Part shown: one piece after another, positions 4,323 to 43,657 of the stretch
Numbering within the stretch: position 1 is the first letter of the stretch
How the letters are laid out: every line of letters begins with the position of its first letter
Assembly: GCA_034434635.1 (NCBI GenBank)
Contig: DAOTYX010000184.1
Coordinates: forward strand, 3,880 to 67,879
From: Anaerolineae bacterium
GTDB taxonomy: Bacteria; Chloroflexota; Anaerolineae; B4-G1; DUEL01
Direction: 5' to 3'
Length of the DNA stretch: 64,000 bases
Translations under genes and position numbers: made by a program
Notes under the pieces: generated by a model
What the model was told of the DNA's origin: nothing
The model's database searches: none
What the model saw: only the letters and a program-made list of their open reading frames with translations

Positions 4323-4326
4323 AGAC

Positions 4327-6267: not shown

Positions 6268-6283
6268 AATTCAGGAGAGGGAG

Positions 6284-10392: not shown

Positions 10393-10423
10393 GCGCTTAT
10401 CAGATGACGGGAGGTTCTATTCT

Positions 10424-11431: not shown

Positions 11432-11468
11432 AGCAGCCTCATCCTGATTCGAGGGAGAAGAAAACCTG

Positions 11469-13115: not shown

Positions 13116-13123
13116 GGTGAGAA

Positions 13124-14605: not shown

Positions 14606-14609
14606 CAGG

Positions 14610-15746: not shown

Positions 15747-15801
15747 GGAAGAGATCGGTTGCGTGGGTAGGAGAGAGCAAGAAACCTAAACGGGGGAAAA
15801 G

Positions 15802-16857: not shown

Positions 16858-16864
16858 TCCGAAC

Positions 16865-16897
16865 GAGGTGCGACGCATGACCCATGCGTCGCACCTC
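16865..16897 (+). promoter_or_regulatory. Intra-operonic 15-bp-stem hairpin between the binding-protein gene and the ATPase gene (GACGCAT...ATGCGTC core, related to the REP family)
   Basis: gaggtgcgacgcatg-acc-catgcgtcgcacctc. Typical position for differential-expression hairpins in ABC operons. Confidence 0.5.
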
Positions 16898-16916
16898 CTC
16901 TAACAGGGGGTGAGGC

Positions 16917-29550: not shown

Positions 29551-30684
29551 ATGAAAGCCTCCACAGCCATTCTTGTCGTCAACCTGCTGGTAGATATGGT
29601 GGAGCGGGGCAAGCCGTTCCCCATGCCGCCCGAATACGGCGAGATCGCCGCGCGCACCGTGGCCTTTGTCCGCCGGGCGCAGGAGGCCGGCTACCCGGTG
29701 ATCTTCATCCAGGACCAGCACCGTCCCGACGACAAGGAGTTCACCGATTTTGCTGTGGGCCAGCCGCACGCTGTGCGCGACACAGAAGGGGCGCAGTTGA
29801 TCGCCGGGTTGGAGCCAGTGGCGGGGCGGGACTACGCTGTGGGCAAGCGACGCTTCAGCGCCTTCTTCGGCACCGATCTGGACCTCTACCTGCGCGAGGA
29901 GGGCATCCGTCGGCTGGTGGTCGTCGGGCGCCCCAGCAACGTCTGTGCGCTCTACTCCGCCGCCGACGGCCTCTTCCGCCGCTACGAGATGATAGCCATC
30001 TCTGACTGCCTCTACTCGCGGGACGGGGCGATGCATGAGCGGAGCATGCGCGAGTTCGCGGCCACGCTGGGTGAGGTGATGACCTCGGAGGCCTTCCTGG
30101 CTGCCCCGCCGCCGGAGCCGCCCCCGTTCCCGGAGCGGTTGGCGGTGCTGGTGGTGAACGTCAACAAGGACCTGGTGGAGAACAACCTCCCCGAGAGCGG
30201 CGCGCGGGTCGCTGCCCGGTTGGGGGAGATGCGCGCGCTGCTGGAGGTGGCCCGCGGTGGCGGCCTCCCGATTCTGTACGCGATGGACGCCCACCTCCCC
30301 GACGACTGGGAGTTTCGCCGCCGCGTGCCGCACGGGATCGCCGGCACTCCCGGCGCAGCGGTGGTGGACCCGTTAGCGCCGTTGCCGGGGGACGTCCTCT
30401 TCTCGAAGCGCACCTACGACGCTTTCTATGAGACGGGTCTTGATCCCTGGCTGCGCGAGCGGGGGATCACCCGCCTGGTGGTCATCGGCGCGCCGACGAA
30501 CGTGGACCTGCGCTACACCGTCGTCTCGGCCTACAATGCCCGCTACCGCCCGATCGTGGTCAAGGACTGCACCGATGCCAGCACCGAGGAGTTCTACGCC
30601 GAGACCCTGCAGGACCTGTTCTTCTGTCGCCGCATGACCCTGGAGCAGTTCCGAGAATTCATCTCCGAGGCTTCCGAGGCTTGA
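29551..30684 (+). CDS. Tandem fusion of two isochorismatase-family (cysteine-hydrolase) domains; domain 2 has Asp in place of the nucleophilic Cys
   Basis: Domain 1 has D..K..C (VVVGRPSNVCALYSA). Domain 2 has the aligned segment VVIGAPTNVDLRYTV. Internal repeat of about 185 aa. Confidence 0.75.
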   Translation: MKASTAILVVNLLVDMVERGKPFPMPPEYGEIAARTVAFVRRAQEAGYPVIFIQDQHRPDDKEFTDFAVGQPHAVRDTEGAQLIAGLEPVAGRDYAVGKRRFSAFFGTDLDLYLREEGIRRLVVVGRPSNVCALYSAADGLFRRYEMIAISDCLYSRDGAMHERSMREFAATLGEVMTSEAFLAAPPPEPPPFPERLAVLVVNVNKDLVENNLPESGARVAARLGEMRALLEVARGGGLPILYAMDAHLPDDWEFRRRVPHGIAGTPGAAVVDPLAPLPGDVLFSKRTYDAFYETGLDPWLRERGITRLVVIGAPTNVDLRYTVVSAYNARYRPIVVKDCTDASTEEFYAETLQDLFFCRRMTLEQFREFISEASEA

Positions 30685-30720: not shown

Positions 30721-31875
30721 ATGGACCTGAGCATCCGTATCGGCAACCTGGAACTGGAGAATCCGTTCATCGTCGCTGCCGGCCCGCCTGGGGTGACCGG
30801 CGCCTCGCTCAAGCGCATGGCCTCTGGCCGCCCCGGCGCAGTGGTCACCAAGTCCATCGGGGTGGTCCCTTCGCCGGGCCAGCGGCTGAGCCTCTCCCAC
30901 GTCAAGGGGGACCGCCACAGCCTGATCCTCACCGATCCCTGGTCGGCGCACACCTTCGAGGAGTGGTGCGAGCGGGAGATGAAGGTCGCCAGGTCGGGTG
31001 GGGTGCCCGTCATCATGAACCTGCAGGCGGTGACGCACACCCCGGCAGAGGACATCGCCCGCATGGCTCCGCGCGCCGTGGAGGCCGGAGCCGACGCCAT
31101 CGAACTCTCGGCCTTCGGCTCCGCTCCCAACGTGGTGGAAGGGGCAGGGATCGGCGCGGTGCAGAGCCCCCAACGCACCTACGAAGTCGTCCGCGCCGCC
31201 AAACAGGCGGTGAAGGTGCCCGTGATCGCCAAACTGCTGCCGGAACCCTCCAACCTGATTGACCTGGTGCGGGCAGCGGAGGAGGCCGGGGCGGACGCGA
31301 TCGCCTCGCGGGACACCATCTTCCCGGCCATCTCGTTCGACATCTATACCCGCCGCCCCAAGGTGGCGCGCACCATCGGCACCTGGATGCCGGAACTCTC
31401 CGGGCGGGCCATCCGCGCCAACGCGGTCGGCTACGTCGTGGAGATTTATCGCCTCACCCGCCTGCCGATCATCGGTATCGGCGGCGTGGCGACCTGGGAG
31501 GACGCGGTGGAGATGATCATCGCCGGGGCCACGGCGGTAGGGGTCTGTACGGCGGCGATGGTCGAGGGGCCCAAGATCTTCCCCCGCCTGGTCAAAGGGC
31601 TGGCCACCTTCCTGGAGGAGCAGGGGGTAACGATGGAGGAACTGCGCGGCAGCGGCCTGGAAGGCATGCGCCAGGTCAATGAGATGGCCCTCCATCGCCT
31701 GCATGTGACGATTGACAAGGACCTGTGCACCCAATGCAATATCTGCGACACCGTCTGCCCGGTGCAGGCAGTGCGCCAGGGCGAGGGATATAACTTCATC
31801 GTAGACGAGGAGTGCATCAACTGCGGCTTCTGCGCCGCCAACTGCCCAGAGGAGGCGATCCGCGTGGCGGCCTAG
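30721..31875 (+). CDS. Dihydroorotate/dihydropyrimidine-dehydrogenase-fold FMN protein with C-terminal 2x[4Fe-4S] ferredoxin domain (PreA-like, copy 1)
   Basis: DHOD TIM-barrel N-terminus plus CTQCNICDTVCP / CINCGFCAANCP. Confidence 0.8.
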   Translation: MDLSIRIGNLELENPFIVAAGPPGVTGASLKRMASGRPGAVVTKSIGVVPSPGQRLSLSHVKGDRHSLILTDPWSAHTFEEWCEREMKVARSGGVPVIMNLQAVTHTPAEDIARMAPRAVEAGADAIELSAFGSAPNVVEGAGIGAVQSPQRTYEVVRAAKQAVKVPVIAKLLPEPSNLIDLVRAAEEAGADAIASRDTIFPAISFDIYTRRPKVARTIGTWMPELSGRAIRANAVGYVVEIYRLTRLPIIGIGGVATWEDAVEMIIAGATAVGVCTAAMVEGPKIFPRLVKGLATFLEEQGVTMEELRGSGLEGMRQVNEMALHRLHVTIDKDLCTQCNICDTVCPVQAVRQGEGYNFIVDEECINCGFCAANCPEEAIRVAA

Positions 31876-31901: not shown

Positions 31902-33290
31902 ATGAGCAAGACGATCAGCGAACAGATAGCCGACCTGACTCTCAACCTCCGTTACGAAGACCTGCCGGAACCGGCGCGTCGGCACGCCAGGAACCTGGTG
32001 TTGGACCTGCTGGGCTCGATGATCGGCTCCCGGCGCGTCCCCTCCAGCCGGATCGCCGCCGAGGCGGCGCTGGAGTTGGGCGGGCCGGAGGAGAGTACCG
32101 TCATCGGTCACAACCGCAAGGTGGCAGCCCCCAATGCCGCCTTCGCCAACGCCATTCAGTCCTACGCCTTCGACTTCGCCGACGACCACAATGAGTCCAA
32201 CGCCCACCCCAGCGTGGCGACCATCCCTGCCAGCCTGGCTCTGGGAGAGCATCTACACGCCAGCGGGCGAGAGGTGCTTACGGCCATTGCTCTGGGCAAC
32301 GAGGTGGTGTGTCGGCTCGGGGCGGCCTTCCTGGGTAAGACCTACTACCAGGGCTTTCACCCCTCCAGCACCTGCGGCACCTTCGGCGCGACGGTCTCTG
32401 CTGCCCGCCTCTTGGGTCTCGACTGGCAGCAGACGGTCTGGGCGCAGGGTATCGCTGGCAGCCAGGCCGCCGGGCTGATGGCCTGGAACACCGCTGGCTC
32501 GATCACCAAGCGGCTCCAGGCTGGCCATCCCGCGTGGGTGGGGATCATGTCCGCCCGGCTGGCGAAGAAGGGCTTCGACGGCCCACGGGAGATCATCGAG
32601 GGCACCGATGGCTTTATGCAGGCTTACTCCTACAACCGCCAGTACGACACTCGGCTCATCACCGAAGGCCTGGGCCAGGAGTGGACCTTCGCCCGCTCCA
32701 GCATCAAGGTCTACCCGTGCTGTCGCTACTCCGGCGGACATCTGGACGCCTGTCTGGACATCTACGCCCGTTATCGGCCCGATCCGCGGCGTATTCGCCG
32801 CATCTTCATCCGCTCTTCCGATTACACCATCCGCCTGCTGGCCGCGCCGCGCAAGCGTGACCCCCAGACGATCGTGGACACACAGTTCAGCATGCCCTGG
32901 CAGGCGGCTATCGCCCTGATTGACGGCAAGATTGACGTGGACACCTTCACCGAGGCGAACATCCACCGCCCCGACGTGCGCGAACTGATGAGCAAGGTAG
33001 AATGGGTGGTGGACGAGGAGTTCGAGCGGCGTTACCCTGCCCACTACTCCTGCGCCGTGACCGTGACGATGGACGACGGCACGGAGTACACCACCGTGGT
33101 GGATGACCCCAAGGGGGACTTCCGTAACCCGGTGACACAGGAGGAATTGGAGGCGAAGTTTACCAACCTGGCTCGCCGGGAGATCGCTGACGGGGAGCGG
33201 ATCGCCCGCATCATCGCCTTCGTGCGTGACCTGGAACAGGCGCCGGATATCGGCGCGCTTTTTGCGCTGCTCCAGACTTCCGATGTCTGA
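31902..33290 (+). CDS. MmgE/PrpD-family protein (2-methylcitrate-dehydratase-like)
   Basis: Collinear with PrpD N- and C-domains. ATG 31902 chosen over the track start at 31812. Confidence 0.85.
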   Translation: MSKTISEQIADLTLNLRYEDLPEPARRHARNLVLDLLGSMIGSRRVPSSRIAAEAALELGGPEESTVIGHNRKVAAPNAAFANAIQSYAFDFADDHNESNAHPSVATIPASLALGEHLHASGREVLTAIALGNEVVCRLGAAFLGKTYYQGFHPSSTCGTFGATVSAARLLGLDWQQTVWAQGIAGSQAAGLMAWNTAGSITKRLQAGHPAWVGIMSARLAKKGFDGPREIIEGTDGFMQAYSYNRQYDTRLITEGLGQEWTFARSSIKVYPCCRYSGGHLDACLDIYARYRPDPRRIRRIFIRSSDYTIRLLAAPRKRDPQTIVDTQFSMPWQAAIALIDGKIDVDTFTEANIHRPDVRELMSKVEWVVDEEFERRYPAHYSCAVTVTMDDGTEYTTVVDDPKGDFRNPVTQEELEAKFTNLARREIADGERIARIIAFVRDLEQAPDIGALFALLQTSDV

Positions 33291-33336
33291 AAGACATCGG
33301 AAGTCCGAATGGGAAGAGAATGAGGAGGAATTGACG

Positions 33337-34329
33337 ATGGACCTGTCTCTGCGACGCCGCGCCAGCCTGAAAGGGCGCGACTTCATCACCCTGGCCGACT
33401 ACGACCAGGAGGACCTGTACTTCCTGTTGGACACCGCCGAAGAACTCAAGCGGGCTCAGGCGATGGGCGCACCTCATCGCTGGCTGGAGGGCAAGAGCCT
33501 CGGCATGCTCTTCGGCAAACCCTCTACTCGCACGCGCATATCCTTCGAGACCGGCATGACCCAGTTGGGCGGCCACGCCCAGTTCTACACCGCCGACGAC
33601 CTGCAACTGGCGCACAAGGAGAGCTGGGTGGACACCGCGCGGGCGATGGATCGTTACCTGGATGGCATCGCCGTCCGTCTCTACAACATCCAGCCCTATG
33701 GCGAGTCGCGCCGGGTGCTGAACACCCTGGCCGAAGCGGCGCGCATCCCGGTCATCAACATGCTCGACGACGGTGAGCACCCCTGCCAGGTGCTGTGTGA
33801 TGTGATGACGGTGCGCGAGAAACTGCGCACCTTCGAGGGCAAGAAGATCGTCGTCTCCTGGGCTTACTCCCCGCGTGACAAGTCGGCCGGTGTGCCGCAG
33901 GGTTGGGTGGTGGCTGCCGCGATCCTGGGCATCAACCTGACCCTGGCCTACCCGGAGGGGTTCGACCTGGACCCGGAGTACATGGAGAAGGCTCGTGGCT
34001 TCGCCGCGATGAGCGGCGCTCGCCTGGAGATCGTCCACGACATGGCCGAGGCCGCCCGCGATGCCCACATCTTCTACGCCAAGTCCTGGGGTAGTTTCAC
34101 CCTCCCGCCCGAAGAGGTAAAGCGGCGTGACGCGGAACTACGGCAGTGGATCGTTACGGATGAGTTGTTGGATCGGGCCGATCGGACGGTGAAGTTCATG
34201 CACTGCCTGCCGGCCGACCGCAACCTGGAGGTCACCGACGCGGTGATAGACGGTCCCCGTTCCATCGTCTATGACCAACTAGAGAATCGGCTGCACGCAC
34301 AGAAGGCGATCCTGGCCCTCACGCTGTGA
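33337..34329 (+). CDS. Ornithine/aspartate-carbamoyltransferase-fold enzyme (OTC/YgeW-like transcarbamylase)
   Basis: STRTR carbamoyl-phosphate motif, HCLP motif. ATG 33337 after GAGGAGG. Confidence 0.85.
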   Translation: MDLSLRRRASLKGRDFITLADYDQEDLYFLLDTAEELKRAQAMGAPHRWLEGKSLGMLFGKPSTRTRISFETGMTQLGGHAQFYTADDLQLAHKESWVDTARAMDRYLDGIAVRLYNIQPYGESRRVLNTLAEAARIPVINMLDDGEHPCQVLCDVMTVREKLRTFEGKKIVVSWAYSPRDKSAGVPQGWVVAAAILGINLTLAYPEGFDLDPEYMEKARGFAAMSGARLEIVHDMAEAARDAHIFYAKSWGSFTLPPEEVKRRDAELRQWIVTDELLDRADRTVKFMHCLPADRNLEVTDAVIDGPRSIVYDQLENRLHAQKAILALTL

Positions 34330-34354
34330 GCAGCGCCCGGAGAGACAAGAAGCA

Positions 34355-35629
34355 ATGGGCATGACCTTGACCGAGAAGATCCTCGCCCGCGCCTGCGGGC
34401 GAGAACAGGTCCGGGCGGGGGAGATCATCCGCGCGGCTGTGGATCTGGTCTTCGCCAGCGATGTGACCATGCCGTTGGCAGCCATCGAACTGGAGCGCAT
34501 GCAGGTCGAGCGACTCTTCGACCCGGAGCGGGTGGCCATCATCTGCGACCACTTCACGCCGAATGCTACGGTGGAGGGGGCGCAGAGGGTGAAGCAGTTG
34601 CGCGACTTCGCCCGCCGATACGGAGTGCACCACTTCTATGAGCCGGGGTGCGGGGGGAACTTCGGCGTCGAGCACACCCTGCTGCCAGAAGAGGGGTTGG
34701 TCCGCCCCGGCATGGTCATCGTCGGCGGTGACTCGCACACGACCTCTTACGGGGCGCTGGGGGCCTTCGCTTCCGGCTTCGGCAGCACCGACATCGCTGC
34801 AGCGATGGCCCTCGGCGAGTTGTGGCTGCGGGTACCTGCGACGATGCGCTTCGTCTTCTCGGGCGCGCTGCCCCGGTGGGTGGGCGGCAAGGACCTCATC
34901 CTCCACACCATCGGGCGCATCGGCGTTGCCGGCGCGCTCTACCGGGCCATGGAATTCGACGGTCCGGCTATCGCCGCGTTGAGCGTAGAGCAGCGGCTGA
35001 CGATGTGCAATATGGCCGTCGAAGCCGGGGCGAAGAACGGTTTGATGCCGGTGGATGAGGAGACCTGCCGCTATCTGGCGGCACACGGTGTTGGCGAAGC
35101 ACCTTCTCTTTCCAGTGATCCCGATGCCAACTTCTACTCTGTGACCGAGATAGACGTCAGCGACCTGGAGCCGCAAGTGGCCTGTCCCTTCTCCCCCGAT
35201 AACGTGCAACCGGTCAGTGCCCTGCGGGACACGCGGCTGGATGCCGTCTTCATCGGGTCCTGCACCAACGGCCGCATCGAGGACCTGCGCGTGGCCGCGT
35301 CTATCCTGGGCGGCAGGCGCATCTACCCCGGCGTTCGCCTCCTGGTCATTCCGGCCACGCAGCGAGTCTACCAGCAGGCGCTGCGGGAGGGCTTGCTGAT
35401 GGCCTTCGTACAGGCCGGGGCGGCGGTTGGCGCGCCTACCTGTGGGCCATGCTTCGGCGGACACACCGGGCTGCTTGCCGCTGGCGAGCGGGCGCTCTCC
35501 ACCTCCAACCGCAACTTCGTCGGGCGTATGGGGCACCCGCAGAGCCAGGTCTACCTGGCCTCGGCGGCAGTGGCGGCGGCCTCCGCCGTGCTGGGCCGCA
35601 TTGCCCATCCTGAGGAGGTGATGGGATGA
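34355..35629 (+). CDS. Aconitase-family hydro-lyase large subunit (LeuC / dimethylmalate-dehydratase-like)
   Basis: 424 aa; Cys ligands of the aconitase FeS cluster (GSCTNGR, CGPCFG). Confidence 0.85.
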   Translation: MGMTLTEKILARACGREQVRAGEIIRAAVDLVFASDVTMPLAAIELERMQVERLFDPERVAIICDHFTPNATVEGAQRVKQLRDFARRYGVHHFYEPGCGGNFGVEHTLLPEEGLVRPGMVIVGGDSHTTSYGALGAFASGFGSTDIAAAMALGELWLRVPATMRFVFSGALPRWVGGKDLILHTIGRIGVAGALYRAMEFDGPAIAALSVEQRLTMCNMAVEAGAKNGLMPVDEETCRYLAAHGVGEAPSLSSDPDANFYSVTEIDVSDLEPQVACPFSPDNVQPVSALRDTRLDAVFIGSCTNGRIEDLRVAASILGGRRIYPGVRLLVIPATQRVYQQALREGLLMAFVQAGAAVGAPTCGPCFGGHTGLLAAGERALSTSNRNFVGRMGHPQSQVYLASAAVAAASAVLGRIAHPEEVMG

Positions 35630-36147
35630 TCGTGCAGGGACGCGCCTGGAGGCTTGGCGACAACGTGGACACTGACCAGTTGCTGCCAGGCCGCTACCTT
35701 AGCCTGACCGAGCCGGCAGAACTGGCCCGCCACTGCCTGGAGGATGTGCGTCCCGACTTCTGCGTCGGCGTGAAAGCGGGCGATCTCCTGGTGGCTGGCG
35801 AGAACCTGGGCTGCGGCAGTTCGCGGGAGCATGCCCCGTTGGCGCTCAAAACGTTGGGCATCTCATGCCTGGTGGCGGCCTCCTTCGCGCGCATCTTCTT
35901 CCGCAACAGCATCAACCTGGGGCTGCCGGCCCTGACCTGCCCGGAGGCCGTGGCGGGCATCGCCGATGGGGATTTGCTGCGCATTGACCTGGAGAGCGGC
36001 GAGATCGAGAACCTCACCCACCCCGCGCGCTTCCAGGCCCCGCCGCTGCCCGACTTTCTGACCGAGATTATCCGCGCCGGCGGGATGACGGCTTACGTGC
36101 GCGGGGCCCTCGCCCGCCGACAGGCGGACCATCGTCTGGGGAGGTGA
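35626..36147 (+). CDS. Aconitase-family hydro-lyase small subunit (LeuD-like)
   Basis: 173 aa swivel domain; start overlaps the upstream stop. Confidence 0.85.
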   Translation: MIVQGRAWRLGDNVDTDQLLPGRYLSLTEPAELARHCLEDVRPDFCVGVKAGDLLVAGENLGCGSSREHAPLALKTLGISCLVAASFARIFFRNSINLGLPALTCPEAVAGIADGDLLRIDLESGEIENLTHPARFQAPPLPDFLTEIIRAGGMTAYVRGALARRQADHRLGR

Positions 36148-36148
36148 G

Positions 36149-37318
36149 ATGACCTTCTACGGCGAACAGAAACCCATCCGCTGCGTGATCATGCGCGGCG
36201 GCACCAGTCGGGCGCTCTTCATCATGCGCAATGACCTGCCTGCCGACCCGGCGCTGCGTGATGCGGTCATCCTGCGCCTCTACGGCAGCCCTGACGTGCG
36301 CCAGATTGATGGCCTGGGGGGCGCAGACCCGCTGACCAGCAAACTGGCCATCATCGGTCCGCCCACCCGTCCTGACGCGGACGTGGACTACACCTTCGGC
36401 CAGGTGAGCATCACCACGCCCTTTGTGGACACGGCGGGCAACTGCGGCAACATCTCCGCCGCTGTTGGCCCCTTCGCCATTGACGAGGGGTTGGTGGACG
36501 CGGTCGAGCCGGTGACGAACGTGCGCATCCACCAGACCAACACCCGCTGCATCCTTGTCGCTGAAGTGCCGGTGCGCGGCGGCAAGGCGGCGGTGGAGGG
36601 GGACTACCACATTGATGGCGTGCCGGGCAGCGGCGCGTTGATTCGCCTGGACTTCTCCGATACCGCTGGTGCGGTCACCGGGCGTCTGCTCCCTACCGGC
36701 AACCCAGTGGATCGCCTGGAGGTGCCTGGCGTGGGCGTGGTGGAGGCTTCTCTCGTAGATGCCGGGACGCCCTGTGTCTTCGTCCGTGCCGCCGACCTGG
36801 GCCTGCGGGGCGTGGAAACCCCGGCGGAGATCGACGCTGACCGCGCGCTGAACGAGCGCATCGAGCGCATCCGCGGCACGGCGGCGGTGATGATGGGGCT
36901 GGTCGAGACCTGGTCCGAAGCGGCCACACGCAGCCCCTATCTCCCTTTCTTTGCCATCATTGCCCCGCCAGCGGACTACGTGGACTTCACCACCGGGCGC
37001 ACGGTACGGGCGGATGAGGTGGATTTCCTCTCCCGTCTGCTGTTTATGCTGAAGATGCACAAGGCCTACCCTGTGACCGGCTCGGTCTGCACCGGCGCGG
37101 CGGCGCGCATACCCGGCACCATTGTCCACGAAGCGGCGAGCGCCTCCTCGCGTGAGCGCTCACTGGTGCTCATCGGCCACCCTGCCGGCGTGCTGGATGT
37201 GGAAGTGTCGGTGGAAGCGGAGGGCGCAGGCTACCGCCTGCGGCGCGCGGCGATCGGCCGTACTGCCCGCCGTCTGATAGAAGGATACGCCTTTGTCCCC
37301 TGGAGCACATTCGAGTGA
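36149..37318 (+). CDS. PrpF/AcnD-accessory family isomerase (methylaconitate / methylitaconate isomerase fold)
   Basis: 389 aa; conserved CVIMRGGTSR N-terminus and Cys/Gly-rich catalytic segments typical of PrpF. Confidence 0.8.
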   Translation: MTFYGEQKPIRCVIMRGGTSRALFIMRNDLPADPALRDAVILRLYGSPDVRQIDGLGGADPLTSKLAIIGPPTRPDADVDYTFGQVSITTPFVDTAGNCGNISAAVGPFAIDEGLVDAVEPVTNVRIHQTNTRCILVAEVPVRGGKAAVEGDYHIDGVPGSGALIRLDFSDTAGAVTGRLLPTGNPVDRLEVPGVGVVEASLVDAGTPCVFVRAADLGLRGVETPAEIDADRALNERIERIRGTAAVMMGLVETWSEAATRSPYLPFFAIIAPPADYVDFTTGRTVRADEVDFLSRLLFMLKMHKAYPVTGSVCTGAAARIPGTIVHEAASASSRERSLVLIGHPAGVLDVEVSVEAEGAGYRLRRAAIGRTARRLIEGYAFVPWSTFE

Positions 37319-37377
37319 CCGTCTCTTCCTCCGTGCGACGAGACGTGATGATTTCCTGAAAAAGAGGTACATGACCT

Positions 37378-38652
37378 GTGACTCGACTACTGGAGCATCA
37401 AGGCAAGGAACTGCTGCGACGATTCAAGATTCCCACGCCAGAGGGACGGATTGTCGGCAGCCTGGAAGAGGCGCACGAGGCTGCCCGGCAGATTGGCTAC
37501 CCTCTGTTGGTCAAGGCCCAGGTCTACACCGGCAAGCGCGGCAAGTCCGGCGGCGTGCGCCCGGCTGAGAATGAGGCGGAACTGGAGACCGCAGTGCGTG
37601 AGATGCTCAGCACGCCCATCCGCGGGCTGCTGGTGGAGAGCCTGCTGATCGAGCAACTCATCCCTCTGCGCCGCGAACTCTACGTCGCTGTCACCGCCGA
37701 TCCCAGCCTGCGCCAGCCGGTGCTGATCTTCTGCGCCAACGGCGGAGTGGACATCGAGGAGACATTTCATGACCGCCCCGAAACGGTGCTGCGGCTGCCG
37801 GTGGACATCCTGCGCGGCGTCTACCTGTACGACGCGCTCAACCTGCTGCGCGACGCACCTGAACTCTCCTCGCGCGACCGGTTGGAGGTGGCGCAGGTTC
37901 TCTGTCGCCTGTACGAACTCTACCGCGCCTGCGACGCGAAACTGGCGGAGATCAACCCGCTGGCGCTGACTGACAACGGCCCGGTGGCGCTCGATGCGCG
38001 GATAGACATTGACGGTGACGCCCTCGGCCGTCACCCCGAACTGAGCCTGGCCCTGGCGGAGGAGGCGGGAGAGCGCCACCCCACGCGCCTGGAGCAGATC
38101 GCCGCGACGATTGACCAGGGCGACCACCGCGGCACGGTGCACTTCGTGCAGATTGACCCCGATCTCTCCTATGCCCGTCAGCACCAGAAGGTGCCCATCG
38201 GCTTCGACTGCGTCGGCGCCGGTGTCAGCCTGACGATGATGGACGAACTGGTGCCGCTGGGCTTCTACCCGGTCAACTTCTGCGACAGTTCCGGCAACCC
38301 TGTGGCTTCGAAACTGTACCGTATTACCCGCGTCATCTTCTCCCAGCCGGGTATCGCTGGCTACGTCTTCGTCTCCTGCGTCTCCAGCCAGCAGCTGGAC
38401 AACACCGCGCGGGGGATCATTAAGGCGTTCAAGGAACTCTTCCCTCAAACTGGTGGGCAGCCGGACATCCCCACTGTGCTGGCCTTCCGTGGGGCATGGG
38501 ATGAGGAGGCCATCCGTCTGTTGGCCGACCACGGCATCAGCGCCGGGCGATGGGTCCGTGTGCTGGGCCGGGAGGCCACAGAACAGGAGGTCGCCGAGAC
38601 CTTCCAGGCGTTGCACAGCGCCTGGGTTGCTGAAAGGGGGGAGGCGGCATGA
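37378..38652 (+). CDS. ADP-forming acyl-CoA ligase beta subunit (SucC-like ATP-grasp)
   Basis: [10 protein letters not shown]...[24 protein letters not shown]-grasp N-terminus. Confidence 0.8.
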
Positions 38653-38933
38653 ACGACGGACGATTGGAATTCGCGGTCCGCTCCGGCGGTACGGTCAGCA
38701 TAACCCTTGAGCGCTGCGTTGATTGTGAGACCAAGGCCTGCATCAAGGTCTGCCAGGCCCAGGGAGGGCCGCTGGTGCTCGATGAGGAGCGAGGGCTGCC
38801 GGCGCTGCGCTGGTCTCTTGAGGAGATCACCCGTGGCGGCTGTGTGGAGTGTCTGGGCTGCGAGTTGGACTGTGAACTCTACGGTCGGCAGGCGGTGAAG
38901 ATCACCCTGCCGCTGGCGGGGCTGGAGGTGTAG
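38649..38933 (+). CDS. Small 2x[4Fe-4S]-ferredoxin-like protein inserted between the ligase beta and alpha genes
   Basis: 94 aa; [13 protein letters not shown] and [11 protein letters not shown] Cys clusters. Confidence 0.6.
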
Positions 38934-38934
38934 G

Positions 38935-39843
38935 GTGTCCATCCTGGTTGACCAGAACACAAGGGTCGTGGTACAGGGGGCTACCGGTCGCGAGGCCATC
39001 CTGCGCATCCGTCTGATGAAGGAGTACGGCACGAAGGTCGTCGCCGGGGTGACGCCAGGCAAGGGTGGGGAGACGGTCGAGGGGGTGCCGGTTTACAACA
39101 CGGTTTTGGAGGCCCGTGAACATCATCCGGAGATCAACACCGCCACCATCTTCGTGCCGGCGATGGTGGCGAAGGTCGCGGCGCTGGAGGCGCTGGACGC
39201 CGGAATCTCGGTGATCACGCTGCACCCGGAACGGGTGCCACAGCAGGACATGCTGGAGGTGATCGCCTACGCCCGGCGCTGCGGAGGCTACGTCATCGGC
39301 CCCAACACCATCGGCCTGATCAGCCCTGGCAAGGCGCTGGTGGGGATGATCGGCGGTAATGCCACTTCGGCGCGCGAGTTCTTCCGCCCAGGGCCGGTGG
39401 GGATCCTCTCCCGTAGCGGCGGGAACACCACCACGCTGGCCTTCTATATCAACCAGGCAGGGCTGGGACAGACCACAGCCATCGGTATGGGCGGCGATGC
39501 CTTTGTCGGCACGACGCTGCGCGATCTTCTGGCCCTGTTCGAGCAGGACCCGGAGACGCAAATGGTCGCTTTCTTTGGCGAGATCGGCACGAGCATGGAG
39601 GAGGATGCAGCCACCTTCATCCGCGATGGCGGCTTCACAAAACCGATGGTGGCCTATGTCTCCGGCGTCCATGCCCGCCCGGACGTCCGCTTTGGCCATG
39701 CCGGGGCGATGATCAGCCGGGGAGTAGGCTCAGCGCAGGCCAAGCGGGAGGCGCTACGTGCCGCTGGGGTCCATGTGGTGGAGCACTTTGGCGAGATCGG
39801 CCGCGTGGCCCGCGAGATTCTGGGCGGACTGGGCCCGCGATAG
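38935..39843 (+). CDS. Acyl-CoA ligase alpha subunit (SucD-like CoA-binding / His-phosphorylation subunit)
   Basis: CoA-binding N-terminus ([11 protein letters not shown]). GTG start. Confidence 0.85.
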
Positions 39844-39866
39844 TCCAGAGGGATCGGAGGAACGGC

Positions 39867-40814
39867 ATGGAGCCATCATCCACACTCTGGGAGGCGCTTC
39901 TGCCGTCGGCGGTGGAGATCATCGAGGTGGGGCCGCGTGACGGCTTCCAGAACCTGCCCGACTTCATCCCGACGGCGGACAAGGTTCGCATCATCAACGC
40001 GCTTATCCGCGCGGGCATTCGCCGCATGGAGGTGACCTCTTTTGTCCACCCCAAGGCGGTGCCGCAGATGCGCGATGCCGCCGAGGTGCTGCAGGGGATC
40101 ACCCGCAATGGTTGCCAGTGTTTCGCCATGGCCCCTAACCTCAAAGGGGCGGAGCGTGCGATTGAGGCTGGTGCCGACATGCTCAATCTGGTCGTCTCGG
40201 CCAGCGATGCCCACAACCGCAGCAACGTGCGTATGGACGTGGAGGAGTCCCTGGCTGGCTTCCCGCCCGTGCTGGCTCTGGCCAGGGAGGCCGGAGTGCC
40301 GGTACGCGCCAGCATCGCCACGGTCTTCGGCTGCCCCTTTTCTGGGGAGGTACCGCTGACGCGGGTGATCGGGGTGGGTCAGCGGCTGGTGGAGATGGGA
40401 TGTGTCGAGTTGAACCTCTGCGATACGACCGGGATGGCCAATCCTCGCCAGGTGGCCCGCGTGGCCCAGGCGGTGCGGGCGGCTTTCCCCGCCACAAGAC
40501 TGACGATGCACTTTCACAACACCCGAGGCGCAGGCGCCGCTAACCTGCTGGCGGCCTTGCAGAATGGCATCACCTCTTTCGAGGCATCCTTCGGAGGCCT
40601 TGGCGGCTGTCCGTTCGCCCCGGGGGCCACGGGTAACGTCTGCACCGAGGACATGGTGCACATGTTGCACGAGATGGGCATAGCGACAGGAATTGACCTG
40701 CCAGCGCTGCTGGCGGCAGTGCAGGAGGCGGAACCGTTGCTCCACGTGCCACTGAGCGGGCAGGTCATCCGCGCTGGCCGCACCTGTGACCTTCATCCTC
40801 TCCCCACGGCTTGA
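39867..40814 (+). CDS. HMG-CoA-lyase-like DRE-TIM metallolyase (citramalyl-CoA / hydroxymethylglutaryl-CoA lyase family)
   Basis: EVGPRDGFQN...HFHNTRG motifs. Confidence 0.85.
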   Translation: MEPSSTLWEALLPSAVEIIEVGPRDGFQNLPDFIPTADKVRIINALIRAGIRRMEVTSFVHPKAVPQMRDAAEVLQGITRNGCQCFAMAPNLKGAERAIEAGADMLNLVVSASDAHNRSNVRMDVEESLAGFPPVLALAREAGVPVRASIATVFGCPFSGEVPLTRVIGVGQRLVEMGCVELNLCDTTGMANPRQVARVAQAVRAAFPATRLTMHFHNTRGAGAANLLAALQNGITSFEASFGGLGGCPFAPGATGNVCTEDMVHMLHEMGIATGIDLPALLAAVQEAEPLLHVPLSGQVIRAGRTCDLHPLPTA

Positions 40815-40850
40815 GTGGGGACAGCAATCCATGATGGGAAGGAGGAAGAT

Positions 40851-42206
40851 ATGAGTGTAGGGATGACAGCCACCCGCCTGACGGTGGCCGAGCGGCTCAA
40901 GGGGTTCGACGAGGTGGAGCAGGCTTTCAACCCCACCCAGGCTACCCTTGAGGCCAACCGCTGCCTGCTGTGCGACAACGCTCCCTGTAGCCAGGGTTGT
41001 CCGGCAGGCATTGACGTGCGCGGCTTCATCCGCAAGATCCGCTTCGGCGAGTACCGGGGCGGTGTCCGCTTGCTGCGGGAGGAGAACATCTTCGCCGGCA
41101 CCTGTGGGCGGGTCTGCCCTACCGAGGCGCTGTGCGAGCAGGCCTGCCGTAGCCAGGCGCTGACCGACCCCATCCGTATCGGCGCACTGCAACGTTTTCT
41201 GACCGACTGGGAGATGGCTGTAGGGCGGCGTCCGTTCGATCTGCCCCCAGCAACCCTCAAACCGGTCGCCGTCATCGGTGCCGGGCCGGCCGGGCTCTCC
41301 GCCGCTGCTCTCCTGCGGCAACTGGGCCACCCGGTCACCGTCTTCGAGAAAGAGGGATACGCTGGCGGGGCGTTGGTGAACAGCATTCCTGCCTTCAAAC
41401 TCCCCCGCGCCGTGGTAGACTACGAGGTCGGCCTGGTGCGCGATATGGGGGTGGACATCCGCCTCAATACCCCGGTTGATGAGCAGCGCACGCCGCAGCA
41501 GTTGCTGGAGCAGGGCTTCGGCGCGGTGCTGCTGGCCGTGGGGCTGCAGGAGTCCTACTCACTGGGCATCCCTGGGGAGGAGTTGGAAGGCGTGATCACT
41601 GCCCTCGAGGTGCTGCGGCTGGCCAACGGCCTCACCCCACAGCGACCGGTGCGTATCGGTCGGGACGTGGTGGTCATTGGTGGCGGCAGCGCCTCGATCA
41701 ATGCTGCCTGCGCCGCGCTCCGACTGGGAGCGGAGACCGTGACGGTCACCGCGCTGGGCACCCCGGCGGAGATGGACGCTTTCGAGAAGGACAAGCAGCA
41801 AGGGCTCGAGGAAGGCATCCAGTTCCTCTCCCGTGTGCGCCCCTTCCGCTTCCTGGGAGAGGGCGGCCGTGTAACGGGTGTGGAACTGAGACGTGTGACC
41901 TGGCGGGAACCGGGCCGCTTCACCCCAGATAACGCTGTGGATCTGCCCGCACCGTCGCTGGTATTGCTCGCCGACACTGTGGTCATCGCCATCGGCCAGC
42001 GGCCAGATGAGGGCTTCCGGCGTTGTATCCCCGAATTGCAAGCCGCAGCCAACGGTTGTCTCCTGGTAGATCCGGAGACGAAGGCCACGTCTCTGGAGGG
42101 CATCTTCGCTGCTGGCGACATCCTGGTGGGACGGCACACCGTGGTGCAGTCGGTGGCCGAAGGCAAGGCCGCGGCCCGCGCCATTCACGAGTACCTGAGC
42201 GCGTAG
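40851..42206 (+). CDS. preT: GltD/PreT-family FAD/NAD(P)H oxidoreductase with N-terminal FeS domain (dihydropyrimidine dehydrogenase PreT-like)
   Basis: CLLCDNAPCSQGCP / CGRVCP FeS motifs and VAVIGAGPAGLSAA Rossmann. ATG 40851 after GGAGG. Confidence 0.8.
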   Translation: MSVGMTATRLTVAERLKGFDEVEQAFNPTQATLEANRCLLCDNAPCSQGCPAGIDVRGFIRKIRFGEYRGGVRLLREENIFAGTCGRVCPTEALCEQACRSQALTDPIRIGALQRFLTDWEMAVGRRPFDLPPATLKPVAVIGAGPAGLSAAALLRQLGHPVTVFEKEGYAGGALVNSIPAFKLPRAVVDYEVGLVRDMGVDIRLNTPVDEQRTPQQLLEQGFGAVLLAVGLQESYSLGIPGEELEGVITALEVLRLANGLTPQRPVRIGRDVVVIGGGSASINAACAALRLGAETVTVTALGTPAEMDAFEKDKQQGLEEGIQFLSRVRPFRFLGEGGRVTGVELRRVTWREPGRFTPDNAVDLPAPSLVLLADTVVIAIGQRPDEGFRRCIPELQAAANGCLLVDPETKATSLEGIFAAGDILVGRHTVVQSVAEGKAAARAIHEYLSA

Positions 42207-42217
42207 AGGAGGTAGAC

Positions 42218-43432
42218 ATGTCTCTCTATAAACTACCTGCAGTGGACCTGTCTGTCGAATACGCGGGTCTCCGCTTCGATAGTCCCTTCATCCTGGCCTC
42301 TGCGCCTCCTACCGACACCTACGAGATGGTGCGTGATGCCTTCCGCGCTGGCTGGGCCGGGGCGGTGCTCAAGACGACCTCGATGGAGGACTACGTCGTG
42401 GACATCGCCTACCCTTGCATCGCCGGCGTGCGCCACCAGGGCAGCCTCTTCGGCCTGGGCAACATTGACAACATCTCCGAGTTTCATATGGACAAGATGG
42501 AACAGGCCGTGCGGCTTCTGAAGGAGGAGTTTCCGGAGAAGATCGTGGCCACCAGCATCTGGGGCACCGACAAGGCTTCCTGGCAGATGCTGACCCGTCG
42601 CTCCATCGCTGCGGGGGCGGATTACCTGGAGGTCTCCATGTCCTGCCCCACCGACTCCCCCTTCGAGGGGACGCACCTGATGATCGGTCAGGTGCCGGAT
42701 GAAGCCTACAAGATCGTCCGATGGATCGTCGAGGCGGCGGATGGCCTGCCGGTGGTGCCCAAACTGACGTCGCAGGTCACCGACATCCTCTCCATCACCC
42801 GTGCGGTCAAAGAGGCCGGAGCCGCGGCGTTGACCGCCTGTGACTCGGTGCACGGCATCATCGGCATTGACCTGGAGACCTTCGCCCCGCTGCCGATCAT
42901 CGAGGGCAAGGGCACCTTCGCCGGCATGGTTGGCCCCATCCTCAAGCCGTTCGAACTGCGGGTGCTGGCGACCCTTGGCATGGGACAGGGGCTCAAGGTG
43001 GCTGCCAGCGGTGGCGCGACCACCTGGCAGGATGCCGCCGAGTATATGGCGGCGGGGGCCACGCTGGTGCAGTTCTGCACGGCGGTGATGCTCTATGGCG
43101 TGGGCATCATTGACGACCTGAAAGAAGGCCTGGCCTACTTCCTGGAGTCGAAAGGAATGCGTTCGGCGCAGGAACTGGTGGGGCGGGCACTGCCCAACAT
43201 TGTCCCTCAACCCGACCTGAACCCCATCAAGCATGCGGTGGCCTTCGTGGACCGCGAACGGTGTACTCGTTGTGGTCGGTGTGTGATCTCCTGCCAGGAT
43301 GGCGGTCATCGCGCCTATATCATCACCGCCGACGGCTACCCGGAGGTAGACAAAGACAAGTGCTACGGCTGCGGGCTGTGTCCTGACGTCTGCCCGGCGC
43401 AGTGTATCTCCCTGCTGCCGCGCCAGGTCTGA
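42218..43432 (+). CDS. preA: PreA-like DHOD-fold FMN / 2x[4Fe-4S] subunit (copy 2), partner of PreT
   Basis: DHOD-like barrel plus CTRCGRCVISC / CYGCGLCPDVCP. ATG 42218 after AGGAGG. Confidence 0.8.
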   Translation: MSLYKLPAVDLSVEYAGLRFDSPFILASAPPTDTYEMVRDAFRAGWAGAVLKTTSMEDYVVDIAYPCIAGVRHQGSLFGLGNIDNISEFHMDKMEQAVRLLKEEFPEKIVATSIWGTDKASWQMLTRRSIAAGADYLEVSMSCPTDSPFEGTHLMIGQVPDEAYKIVRWIVEAADGLPVVPKLTSQVTDILSITRAVKEAGAAALTACDSVHGIIGIDLETFAPLPIIEGKGTFAGMVGPILKPFELRVLATLGMGQGLKVAASGGATTWQDAAEYMAAGATLVQFCTAVMLYGVGIIDDLKEGLAYFLESKGMRSAQELVGRALPNIVPQPDLNPIKHAVAFVDRERCTRCGRCVISCQDGGHRAYIITADGYPEVDKDKCYGCGLCPDVCPAQCISLLPRQV

Positions 43433-43620: not shown

Positions 43621-43657
43621 CAGAAAAAAGAGAGGGCCGGGATACCCCCGGCCCTCT
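43621..43657 (-). terminator. Rho-independent terminator for the sigma/anti-sigma operon (11-bp GC stem AGAGGGCCGGG/CCCGGCCCTCT followed by T-run on minus strand)
   Basis: On the minus strand the hairpin is followed by CTTTTTTCTG. It also lies 3' of the convergent + operon. Confidence 0.7.

Follow-up and report, generated by a model that had tools for sequence, protein, structure and literature searches.

A probable iron-sulfur component of a CoA ligase related to succinyl- and citryl-CoA synthetases in a putative branched-dicarboxylate operon of an Anaerolineae bacterium

A 64,000-nucleotide stretch of contig DAOTYX010000184.1 from an Anaerolineae bacterium, hereafter called the window, was analyzed with a focus on the gene cluster at positions 31902-40814, in which the two subunit genes of a CoA ligase, one SucC-like (beta) and one SucD-like (alpha), flank a small open reading frame (ORF) for a 94-amino-acid protein with eight cysteines. 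All named genes of this region were found on the + strand where the initial annotation, made from the sequence alone, had placed them, and they form one tightly packed operon with spacings of 0-59 nt or overlaps (Table 1). The run of + strand genes is nearly unbroken from about 2.6 kb to 43.4 kb of the window, which has a G+C content of 66%, and positions 31902-40814 probably represent the core of one long catabolic operon of an Anaerolineae-type Chloroflexota genome. A promoter/terminator scan of the operon revealed no internal terminator above background, and the sole strong stem-loop between positions 27000 and 46000, located behind the last operon gene, is likely to be the terminator.

Table 1. 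Features of the window discussed in the text.
Feature	Position	Strand	Basis or remark
Possible gene block for amine or polyamine catabolism	2617-15746	+	
SsnA-like amidohydrolase	23282-24586		adjoins the fused XDH-family gene
XDH-family polypeptide	24544-28287	+	1247 aa
Tandem double isochorismatase-family protein	29551-30684	+	377 aa
PreA-like flavoenzyme (DHODH fold + 2x[4Fe-4S])	30721-31875	+	Pfam DHO_dh + Fer4; immediately upstream
MmgE/PrpD-family protein	31902-33290	+	PF03972 + PF19305
OTC-branch transcarbamylase, 'YAKSWGS' subfamily	33337-34329	+	330 aa
LeuC-like hydro-lyase large subunit (LeuC/HacA/DmdA type)	34355-35629	+	PF00330
LeuD-like hydro-lyase small subunit (LeuD/DmdB type)	35626-36147	+	TIGR02087
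PrpF-family isomerase, Mii-like	36149-37318	+	PF04303
SucC-like beta (ATP-grasp) ligase subunit	37378-38652	+	ATP-grasp_2
94-aa 8-Cys ferredoxin-like protein	38649-38933	+	Cys motifs
SucD-like alpha (CoA-binding, phosphohistidine) ligase subunit	38935-39843	+	CoA_binding + Ligase_CoA
HMG-CoA-lyase-family (DRE-TIM) CoA-ester lyase	39867-40814	+	PF00682
PreT/GltD-like NAD(P)H-binding Fe-S flavoprotein	40815-42206	+	Fer4_20 + Pyr_redox_2; same operon
PreA (dihydropyrimidine-dehydrogenase catalytic subunit type), final operon gene	42203-43432	+	NF006183 363 vs cut-off 335
12-bp GC-rich hairpin, between operon end and convergent anti-sigma gene	43631-43657	.	stem-loop scan
ECF sigma factor and zf-HC2 anti-sigma pair	43672-45254	-	converges on operon end

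The cysteines of the 94-aa protein are arranged as C23xxC26xxxxC31xxxC35 and C65xxC68xxC71xxxC75, the second motif being canonical and the first having a four-residue second spacer, with no proline after either of them. Its ATG overlaps the stop codon of the SucC-like gene (ATGA) and is preceded by the strong Shine-Dalgarno sequence GGGGGGAGG, and the GTG start codon of the SucD-like gene begins 2 nt past its own stop. A word-indexed search yielded 131 close homologues, most of them 107-109 aa long and almost none annotated. When 24 of these homologues were aligned, six of the cysteines proved invariant and the seventh nearly so, and the eighth position is occupied by cysteine or, in one subclade, by aspartate. 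Both cysteine motifs are retained in 175 of the 211 family members with a length of at least 85 aa, and 22 of the 211 carry the Cys-to-Asp variant that is also known from some genuine [4Fe-4S] ferredoxins. An exhaustive profile search of 1.84 billion proteins assigned 122 representative clusters to this family, which is rare. Unlike most homologues, the window's copy and P0001, a relative with 94% identity to it, end 13 residues early and are thus without the conserved C-terminal tail DEYLxxLxEPVVY. Since there are 131 homologues with invariant cysteines and the sequence occupies the same place beside a SucC-like gene in all 80 loci described below, the ORF is far beyond chance, and a chance ORF is ruled out by the conservation, the invariant cysteines, the Shine-Dalgarno sequences and the existence of fusions.

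Concerning the nature of this protein, the sub-threshold Pfam matches all belong to the Fer4 clan (4Fe-4S dicluster families), and a search of the Protein Data Bank (PDB) with a profile of the family returned only NdhI/NuoI and OGOR-delta, both at E values of about 0.05. The AlphaFold model of one protein in which the SucC-like and the cysteine part are fused has a mean confidence (pLDDT) of 84; in it, a linker of low confidence leads to a compact domain at the C-terminus, in which beta and alpha elements alternate (pLDDT about 88-92). When this fusion was compared with solved structures using Foldseek, only the first 400-460 or so columns aligned to the structures of SCS-beta, CcsA and ACL (see below), with no solved relative having the cysteine domain. 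Several observations weaken the case for an iron-sulfur protein: no Pfam or NCBIfam model matches the ORF at threshold (the best, Fer4_21, scores 18.7 bits against a required 35), the AF2 model of the free 94-aa protein reaches a pLDDT of only 69.5, and Foldseek searches with that model gave nothing significant, the best real match being the polyferredoxin FwdF with a TM score of 0.55. The eight-cysteine domain is probably ferredoxin-like with two [4Fe-4S] clusters, and it is referred to as the Fe-S domain in the following.

A locus scan covering one genome per GTDB species identified 80 loci with this sequence, mostly from Anaerolineae and from about ten phyla in all, the other lineages being Clostridia, Syntrophaceae, Xanthobacteraceae, Trueperaceae, Planctomycetota, Gemmatimonadota, Spirochaetota, Acidobacteriota and Rhodothermales. 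In all 80 loci the eight-cysteine sequence lies at the 3′ end of the SucC-like gene, in 49 of them as an in-frame C-terminal domain of the SucC-like protein, and a SucD-like gene is next wherever the contig continues, except in L042 and L043. At least ten representative proteins are fusions as well, and independent fused representatives of 471-541 aa consist of ATP-grasp_2, often the citrate-binding domain Citrate_bind of ACL, and then the cysteine domain. The window holds the split form of a fusion between a SucC-like protein and the Fe-S domain, and the fusion is the majority architecture. The initial annotation had described a ferredoxin gene inserted into a sucCD pair; the gene proved to be real and conserved among orthologous clusters, and "inserted" is better replaced by "split off". 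Because the eight-cysteine protein is always found beside a SucC-like protein, with fusion of the two in 49 of the 80 loci, it can be assigned with high confidence, as far as sequence comparison goes, to the ligase as a domain or subunit rather than to the pool of free electron carriers. An ordinary soluble ferredoxin that serves LeuCD, PreA or an aldehyde:ferredoxin oxidoreductase (AFOR) was also considered and ruled out as the principal explanation, as the domain tracks the ligase in three differing neighbourhoods and is usually fused to it. As for the two exceptions, both are 20-kb loci in which the fused gene has no SucD-like gene downstream. In L005 two triads of SucC-like, Fe-S and SucD-like sequences are found in tandem (5269-12000), and L018 and L021 lie on two contigs of one metagenome-assembled genome (GCA_030603665.1).

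Sequence comparison indicates that the SucC-like, eight-cysteine and SucD-like proteins together make up one enzyme, an ADP-forming acyl-CoA synthetase of the superfamily that comprises succinyl-CoA synthetase (SCS), citryl-CoA synthetase (CCS) and ATP-citrate lyase (ACL), with the Fe-S domain being predicted to form a separate, translationally coupled polypeptide in the lineage of the window. The alpha subunit keeps the phosphohistidine motif GHAGA (RFGHAGAMI aligns with SCS-alpha) and has its best PDB match in the alpha subunit of Aeropyrum SCS (278 bits). Nevertheless, neither subunit reaches the cut-offs of the respective NCBIfam models, with the beta subunit scoring 206.7 against 370 (NF001913) and 201.5 against 375.55 (TIGR01016) on SucC models and the alpha subunit scoring 295.3 against 353.2 (TIGR01019) and 293.9 against 336 (NF004230) on SucD models. 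Residues 211-424 of the beta subunit have no Pfam match even at E values up to 10, and the Ligase_CoA domain PF00549 is missing. In a residue-level alignment this C-terminal half shares the motifs PTxxExxAxxIDxxDHRG and SGNPxAxKxYxITxxIxSxPGI with CcsA of Hydrogenobacter, both of which are missing from the SCS-beta of Thermus, Francisella and Escherichia coli. Additionally, 75 beta subunits linked to the Fe-S domain fall outside the group formed by CcsA and the SCS-beta of E. coli, Francisella and Thermus in a neighbour-joining tree. Owing to the scores below the cut-offs, the lack of Ligase_CoA in beta, the CcsA motifs and the separation in the tree, the ligase appears to be CCS-like, the case is strong that it is not a bona fide SucCD, and an ordinary SucCD finds no support. 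Points against this classification are that the tree was built with four reference sequences and carries no support values, that the beta subunit of the window shows no match to Citrate_bind (PF16114), which is present in six of the ten fused or fragment relatives scanned, and that its total phmmer score is slightly higher with Thermus SCS-beta (176 bits) than with CcsA (161 bits). By analogy with CCS, the substrate may not be succinate but a citrate-like 2-hydroxy-2-alkyl-succinate, whose CoA ester would then be cleaved by the neighbouring lyase.

A different reading of the same data, which we consider decidedly unlikely, is that the triad is a genuine, lineage-specific SCS, either housekeeping or dedicated to the pathway. 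Its role would be to regenerate the succinyl-CoA with which a CoA-transferase of family III activates the branched acid, the Fe-S domain being an accessory. The near-standard SucD-like alpha subunit (294 bits), with GHAGA and with only SCS alpha subunits as best PDB matches, would fit such a function, as would the proximity of beta to Thermus SCS-beta by total score, the CoA-transferase III gene that comes after the lyase gene in L084, L086, L007 and L008, and the many class B1 loci (see below) in which the ligase has no lyase nearby; the resulting scheme would also match the known itaconate pathway and the citramalate pathway of Chloroflexus. It is difficult to reconcile with both subunits lying under the SCS equivalog cut-offs, with the acid-binding C-terminal half of beta having CcsA motifs in place of PF00549, and with the lack of a CoA-transferase gene in the window and in the annotated class A1 and A2 loci, where the adjacency of ligase and lyase is constant. 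Paralogous triads within single genomes, two or three in some of them, fit a diversified substrate specificity within the family and speak against an SCS as well.

The gene neighbourhoods provide further information on the partner of the ligase. Among the 48 well-flanked loci, i.e., those with at least 5 kb on both sides, 24 contain a CoA-ester lyase gene within 7 kb, of which 11 are similar to 3-hydroxy-3-methylglutaryl-CoA (HMG-CoA) lyase, in the following called HMGL-like, and 13 consist of the C-terminal part of citrate synthase only, which is the architecture of citryl-CoA lyase (Ccl). The same 48 loci contain LeuC-like genes in 20 cases and PrpF-like and MmgE/PrpD-like genes in 11 cases each. 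Class A loci, whose beta subunit is at least 54% identical to that of the window, combine LeuCD, a PrpF-family gene, the split ligase and an HMGL-like lyase, which adjoins the ligase in all of them; variable members are the MmgE/PrpD protein, the transcarbamylase, PreT/PreA and amidohydrolases. Class B2 loci hold a fused ligase, a Ccl-like lyase, LeuCD, an Iso_dh gene and an MmgE/PrpD gene, divergently oriented from genes for 2-oxoacid:ferredoxin oxidoreductase (OFOR) and an HdrA/MvhD-like protein. In class B1 the fused ligase is found beside a LacI regulator, a sugar-type ABC transporter and ADP-ribosylglycohydrolases, with no lyase nearby. The pairing of the ligase with lyases of two unrelated folds provides the best evidence for a two-step system like that of CCS and Ccl.

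The locus L025 of a Clostridia genome shows the gene order PrpD-like, TctC, TctB, TctA, old yellow enzyme (OYE)-type reductase, LeuCD, ligase triad, HMGL, Mii-like, followed by a PrpR-type activator (sigma-54), a fumarate-reductase-like flavoprotein and an MFS transporter. TctC is also encoded in the locus from Syntrophaceae, and L084 and L086, both from Anaerolineae, carry a gene for a family III CoA-transferase directly behind the lyase gene. These contexts support a free organic acid as substrate. The coupling of the module to TctABC or TctC instead of heterocycle genes in Clostridia and Syntrophaceae also runs counter to the connection with heterocycle degradation that had been drawn at first. 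In L084 (13595-20316), L086 (13634-20330) and L085 (15179-17350), the carbon module is followed by five tightly spaced genes on the same strand, which encode an MtmB-like protein, a corrinoid protein (B12-binding_2 + B12-binding), a DAO/FAO_M/GCV_T fusion, a protein of the Asp/Glu racemase family and an MttB-family methyltransferase and are absent from the window; this arrangement suggests that the carbon module of these loci is co-expressed with methylated-amine demethylation.

The remaining enzymes of the carbon module were compared with characterized families one by one. The PrpF-family protein matches PF04303 with 425.6 bits (residues 8-384) and stays under the equivalog cut-offs of PrpF (334 against 440.55) and of the OMA-tautomerase (360 against 440). 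Its best solved relative is 3-methylitaconate delta-isomerase (Mii) of Eubacterium barkeri (3g7k, 439.6 bits, E value 8e-131), followed by PrpF (293 bits) and oxalomesaconate isomerase (233 bits), and on these scores it is classified as a close homologue of Mii. The LeuC-like protein passes NF001614 (597.5 against 385) and fails the LeuC equivalog TIGR02083 (580.6 against 610.65), with the large subunits of homoaconitase and isopropylmalate/citramalate isomerase as best PDB matches. Similarly, the LeuD-like protein passes TIGR02087 (LeuD/DmdB; 193.2 against 108.95), fails the LeuD equivalog TIGR02084 (204.9 against 245.85) and is most similar in the PDB to the small subunit of the Methanocaldococcus jannaschii isopropylmalate/citramalate isomerase (188 bits). 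Its specificity loop reads YLSL, compared to YLVY in the M. jannaschii isomerase and YLRT in homoaconitase. The YLSL loop is kept across class A loci and lacks the homoaconitase-type arginine for the distal carboxylate, and on the residue level it favours an alkyl-substituted maleate or malate over a tricarboxylate. For the MmgE/PrpD protein, the label "PrpD" had to be given up: it scores 73, 33.6 and 32.1 bits on PrpD equivalogs with cut-offs of 950, 575 and 458 bits, and among solved proteins it is most similar to IDS epimerase (153 bits) and cis-aconitate decarboxylase (CAD; 136 bits), so that it may be a decarboxylase or an isomerase with a tri- or dicarboxylate as substrate. The lyase, finally, matches PF00682 with 169 bits, NF004283 with 356.4 bits (cut-off 246) and HMG-CoA lyases in the PDB with 288 and 278 bits. 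Its neighbours, which include the ligase, the Mii homologue and LeuCD and no catabolic genes for leucine, ketone bodies or isoprenoids, argue for a substrate of the malyl type.

On the basis of these assignments, a pathway can be proposed that would start from an itaconate-type methylene-succinate, possibly supplied from an aconitate-type acid by the MmgE/PrpD protein, which is similar to CAD and IDS epimerase. The Mii-like isomerase would convert the itaconate-type acid to citraconate (or dimethylmaleate), the Fe-S hydratase of the LeuCD/Dmd type would hydrate citraconate to (R)-citramalate (or dimethylmaleate to 2,3-dimethylmalate), the ligase would form the CoA thioester of this product, and the HMGL-family lyase would cleave the thioester to pyruvate and acetyl-CoA (or propionyl-CoA). 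Ligase and lyase would thereby act as a two-step "ATP-dependent lyase", analogous to citryl-CoA synthetase and citryl-CoA lyase. The individual steps have precedents: the MmgE/PrpD family includes the CAD/IRG1 enzymes, which turn cis-aconitate into itaconate; Mii converts itaconate and citraconate slowly into each other; hydration of citraconate by enzymes of the LeuCD type gives (R)-citramalate; and the R-citramalyl-CoA lyase of Chloroflexus belongs to the HMG-CoA lyase family. The C5 version (itaconate/citraconate) is favoured over the C6 version, as no carbon-skeleton mutase able to make 3-methylitaconate was seen in the window or the annotated loci. Taken as a whole, this explanation is the best one available and seems to us about as likely to hold as to fail, and the assignment of substrates and pathway in particular reaches at best a similar level.

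A number of points weigh against this proposal. The substrates of ligase, lyase, isomerase and hydratase have been taken from their nearest characterized homologues, and the use of citramalyl-CoA by the lyase follows the Chloroflexus precedent by analogy; by its scores the lyase is an ordinary HMG-CoA lyase. The transcarbamylase gene sits inside the operon, yet no proposed chemistry joins a ureido compound to itaconate-type acids via the enzymes present. Furthermore, a trio of PrpD, PrpF and an aconitase-type enzyme is a hallmark of the methylcitrate cycle.

This last point leads to another interpretation, in which ligase and lyase would act on (methyl)citryl-CoA in either direction, possibly conserving ATP, and the MmgE/PrpD, PrpF-family and aconitase-family enzymes would interconvert (methyl)citrate, (methyl)aconitate and (methyl)isocitrate. 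Besides the classical trio, the CCS-like character of the ligase would be in line with such a module, as would the distant relatives beside genes for citryl-CoA-lyase-like, Iso_dh and OFOR proteins and the tripartite tricarboxylate transporter with the PrpR-type sigma-54 activator in the Clostridia locus. However, the isomerase is far nearer to Mii than to PrpF, the MmgE/PrpD protein does not exceed 73 bits on PrpD models, the LeuD loop has no arginine for a third carboxylate, the lyase of the window is of the HMGL type and not of the citrate synthase type, and both the window and the class A loci are without genes for a methylisocitrate lyase or an isocitrate dehydrogenase. We regard a tricarboxylate module as less probable still than a genuine SCS.

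The least probable of the alternatives, which we hold to be very unlikely, is the tail of a nicotinate (pyridine) fermentation leading from 3-methylitaconate via dimethylmaleate and dimethylmalate to propionyl-CoA and pyruvate, with the ferredoxin coupling the ligase to PreA, AFOR or LeuCD: the Mii homologue adjoins a Dmd-type hydratase as in E. barkeri, and the same operon encodes an XDH (xanthine dehydrogenase)-family hydroxylase, amidohydrolases, ene-reductases of the PreT/PreA type and an AFOR, but no 2-methyleneglutarate mutase, other carbon-skeleton mutase or 2-(hydroxymethyl)glutarate dehydrogenase/dehydratase is present in the window or the annotated related loci, the conserved transcarbamylase has no role in pyridine breakdown, and the Fe-S domain accompanies the ligase, or is fused to it, whether or not a redox partner is encoded nearby. 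As for B12-binding proteins, those of L084-L086 are corrinoid proteins of the methyltransferase type, encoded beside MtmB-like genes. What the initial annotation had noted, namely enzyme families of the nicotinate tail combined with activation by CoA and a lyase for the CoA ester, similar to citramalyl-CoA pathways, is a fair account of the families present (Mii 440 against PrpF 293 bits; LeuD/DmdB subfamily): a dimethylmalate lyase of the phosphoenolpyruvate mutase/isocitrate lyase family is absent from the window, where ligase and HMGL-type lyase occupy its position. An origin of the carbon skeleton in nicotinate, on the other hand, is unlikely in view of the missing 2-methyleneglutarate mutase. 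A B12-free nicotinate route of the glutaconate type (2-methyleneglutarate, 2-methylglutaconate, 3-hydroxy-2-methylglutaryl-CoA, acetyl-CoA and methylmalonate semialdehyde) was considered as well and set aside, as hydratases of the aconitase family act on substrates of the maleate type and require that the carbon bearing the hydroxyl group also carries a carboxylate.

With respect to the function of the Fe-S domain, the redox-coupled ligase or reductase complex suggested at the outset finds no support. Since ligation needs no electrons and the domain tracks the ligase whatever its neighbours, it does not appear to be an electron carrier of the pathway; it also occurs in lineages that include aerobes (Trueperaceae, Xanthobacteraceae, Gemmatimonadota). 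There is about an even chance that the domain, placed at the C-terminus of beta, contributes to the structure of the ligase or to its regulation by sensing redox state or O2, and this is the weakest inference of the present work. In fused ATP-citrate lyases, the C-terminus of beta is the place of the flexible linker between beta and alpha. A role as an electron relay or as a docking module for OFOR, AFOR or PreA appears unlikely. If all parts of the proposal are taken together, the window would encode the first Fe-S member of the SCS/CCS/ACL superfamily, a synthetase gated by or electronically coupled through a ferredoxin-like domain, which together with its HMGL partner would constitute a new ATP-dependent "(R)-citramalate (or dimethylmalate) lyase" closing a new free-acid route for itaconate- or aconitate-type acids, wired in Anaerolineae to an ATP-yielding breakdown of cyclic ureides via a new transcarbamylase subfamily; this joint reading is rather doubtful.

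The transcarbamylase mentioned above starts at position 33337, its 330 aa being identical to the public protein P0242. It keeps the carbamoyl phosphate motifs KPSTRTR, HPCQ and HCLP, and its loop for the second substrate reads AKSWGSF in place of the ornithine motif DxxxSMG, with lysine replacing aspartate. By the criteria of a review of transcarbamylases, which defines the ornithine motif as well as those of PTCase, DPTCase and ATCase (PMC4581275), it fits none of the groups described there. The scores on models for ornithine transcarbamylase (OTC) are mixed, as TIGR00658 is passed (295.4 against 280.85) and NF001986 is not (299.2 against 306). Of 120 homologues listed, a pattern search located the region in 84, all of which carry the AKSWGS motif; it is kept down to about 53% identity and in several phyla, and class A2 loci have a related YAKNWTS form. 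Members of this "YAKSWGS" subfamily were found in Chloroflexota, Clostridiaceae, Fraserbacteria, Acetothermia, Thermoanaerobacteraceae and Spirochaetales. A stray argF gene, with a class III aminotransferase as argD, was ruled out by the replaced ornithine loop, the occurrence of AKSWGS across phyla and the carbamate kinase genes found elsewhere.

Carbamate kinase genes adjoin the transcarbamylase gene in three unrelated loci. In L087 the further partners are three amidohydrolases, a second transcarbamylase, a Bmp-type ABC transporter and a PALP enzyme, in L088 a second transcarbamylase, an amidohydrolase, PALP enzymes and an M20 peptidase, and in L089 a dihydroorotase-like amidohydrolase, a PreA-like enzyme and an MmgE/PrpD-family gene. 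The clusters in L087 and L088 look like those of purine fermentation, and the carbamate kinase neighbourhoods are the signature of a catabolism in which a ureido compound is phosphorolysed with a gain of ATP. PreT/PreA and an SsnA-like amidohydrolase take the place of these partners in the window and its sister loci, and the sister loci, unlike the window, add a dihydropyrimidinase-like amidohydrolase. Given these partners, a reductive pathway for cyclic ureides is likely in the window and sister loci, in which the transcarbamylase would catalyze the phosphorolysis of a ureido acid derived from a reductively opened cyclic ureide. The transcarbamylase gene is interleaved with the carbon module in class A1, and the modules share a divergent IclR regulator in class A2, both of which argue for a real link between nitrogen and carbon modules. 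Three chemical links were considered and rejected, namely from 5-carboxymethyluracil via 2-(aminomethyl)succinate to itaconate, from 5-methylorotate via 3-methylaspartate to mesaconate, and from citrazinate to tricarballylate; each of them lacks an enzyme for the amine elimination and a known natural substrate.

Several known systems resemble parts of the cluster. Closest in design are CcsA/CcsB of Hydrogenobacter thermophilus with citryl-CoA lyase (PDB 6hxq) and ATP-citrate lyase, which share with the window the ATP-grasp beta part, the phosphohistidine alpha part and ADP-forming ligation; fused relatives of the ligase match the ACL citrate-binding domain, and a ligase gene followed by a CoA-ester lyase gene is common to both, the lyase being Ccl-like in 13 distant loci. 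They differ in that no solved SCS, CCS or ACL chain has an eight-cysteine domain, that the lyase of the window belongs to the HMGL and not the citrate synthase family, that the Fe-S-linked beta subunits branch apart from CcsA, and that the partner enzymes point to a methyl- instead of a carboxymethyl-substituted substrate. SucCD is alike in fold, gene order, the alpha subunit with GHAGA and an ATP-grasp half near Thermus SCS-beta, whereas the ligase of the window has an Fe-S domain, no recognizable Ligase_CoA in beta and a location beside a lyase gene in a catabolic operon. The nicotinate tail of E. barkeri, consisting of Mii, DmdAB and dimethylmalate lyase (Dml), likewise has the Mii gene directly beside a hydratase of the LeuD/DmdB subfamily; unlike it, the window is without Dml, cleavage is proposed to proceed via a CoA ester, and no B12 mutase or upstream nicotinate enzyme was identified.

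Chloroflexus aurantiacus uses a succinyl-CoA:D-citramalate CoA-transferase and an R-citramalyl-CoA lyase of the HMG-CoA lyase family. This pair resembles the present system in the occurrence of an HMGL-family lyase in Chloroflexota, in the family III CoA-transferase beside the lyase in the sister loci L084 and L086 and in the R-stereochemistry, which is that expected from a citraconate hydratase of the LeuCD type. In contrast to Chloroflexus, activation in the window is proposed to occur by an ATP-dependent ligase instead of or besides CoA transfer, and the context is catabolic rather than the 3-hydroxypropionate bi-cycle. The known route for branched C5 dicarboxylates via citramalyl-CoA has the same end products as those proposed here, acetyl-CoA and pyruvate, but in the window isomerization and hydration would take place on the free acids with CoA introduced last, and the lyase is of another family and probably of opposite stereochemistry. 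As for the transcarbamylase, the ornithine, putrescine and YgeW-type enzymes share its unknotted OTC-branch fold and the STRTR, HPxQ and HCLP motifs, and its homologues have carbamate kinase neighbours as in the arginine deiminase, agmatine deiminase and purine fermentation pathways; the difference lies in the AKSWGSF loop, compared to DxxxSMG of OTCase or the PTCase, DPTCase and ATCase motifs (PMC4581275).

A full-text search of the literature turned up no paper on an SCS or CCS with an Fe-S subunit or domain, nor on this gene cluster. The ligases with an Fe-S domain would accordingly form a new, distinct branch of a known superfamily, for which the structural part of the evidence is strong, and the operon probably represents an unreported arrangement of known enzyme families into a pathway for branched dicarboxylates. 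Public annotations name the proteins "succinyl-CoA synthetase" (beta subunit), "FixX", "PrpF" and "ornithine carbamoyltransferase", names that would mislead metabolic reconstructions. The ADP-forming acyl-CoA synthetases of the SCS/CCS/ACL type are textbook non-redox enzymes, and the Fe-S domain raises the question of whether it serves the redox or oxygen control of an ATP-consuming C-C cleavage, as a docking module or as an electron relay. A combination of ligase and lyase that is realized with two unrelated lyase folds also bears on the evolutionary assembly of ATP-citrate lyase. Beyond that, the operon suggests a CoA-last route for itaconate, citraconate and dimethylmaleate in uncultured Anaerolineae, Clostridia and Syntrophaceae, and it exposes a widespread catabolic subfamily of transcarbamylases.

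The loci with fused ligases show further recurrent features. Class B1 (L029, L032, L038-L048 and others) is the largest group of fused ligases; two to three genes of the ADP-ribosylglycohydrolase family, one of them encoding about 711-758 aa, are located directly upstream of the ligase gene, and a gene for a secreted esterase is often next. The class B2 loci L062, L066, L075, L079 and L082 encode, at about 2000-17000, an HdrA/MvhD-like protein of 1152 aa and four OFOR subunits, as well as a conserved protein of 185-197 aa without Pfam match beside the fused ligase and the citryl-CoA-lyase-like gene, and their LeuCD loop reads GKYTYT. By analogy, this set of genes resembles genes of a reductive tricarboxylic acid-like cycle or of 2-oxoacid chain-length changes in Anaerolineae.

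The flanks of the cluster contain additional genes of interest. The PreA-like flavoenzyme (dihydroorotate dehydrogenase fold) immediately upstream scores under both the PreA and the PyrD cut-offs of NCBIfam and has orthologues with 80-83% identity at the same position in L001, L004, L009 and L010, and the downstream PreT-like gene is kept in L001, L009 and L010. Further upstream, the window encodes a Bmp/PnrA-type ABC transporter, a protein of the 3-hydroxyacyl-CoA dehydrogenase family, the AFOR, the SsnA-like amidohydrolase, the fused XDH-family enzyme, a class III aminotransferase (one of three in the window overall) and the double isochorismatase. The XDH-family polypeptide fuses three modules in the order FAD, 2x[2Fe-2S] and molybdenum cofactor and is nearest to selenium-dependent XDH, at a score under the cut-off (645 against 830 bits). 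The double isochorismatase has weak similarity to RutB, biuret amidohydrolase and nicotinamidase. In the closest loci it is kept at 70-73% identity just 5′ of the PreA-like gene, and sister loci additionally encode a CN_hydrolase, which the window lacks. The block at the beginning of the + strand gene run comprises a two-domain OYE+FAD flavoenzyme with the architecture of trimethylamine dehydrogenase (TMADH) and FadH, an IlvD/Edd dehydratase, an O-methyltransferase, a flavin amine oxidase, a deaminase-like amidohydrolase and an HDAC-like amidohydrolase, and may serve a separate catabolism of amines or polyamines. At the other end, the genes for an extracytoplasmic function (ECF) sigma factor and its anti-sigma partner converge on the operon, and the G+C content falls to 58% at 44-46 kb.

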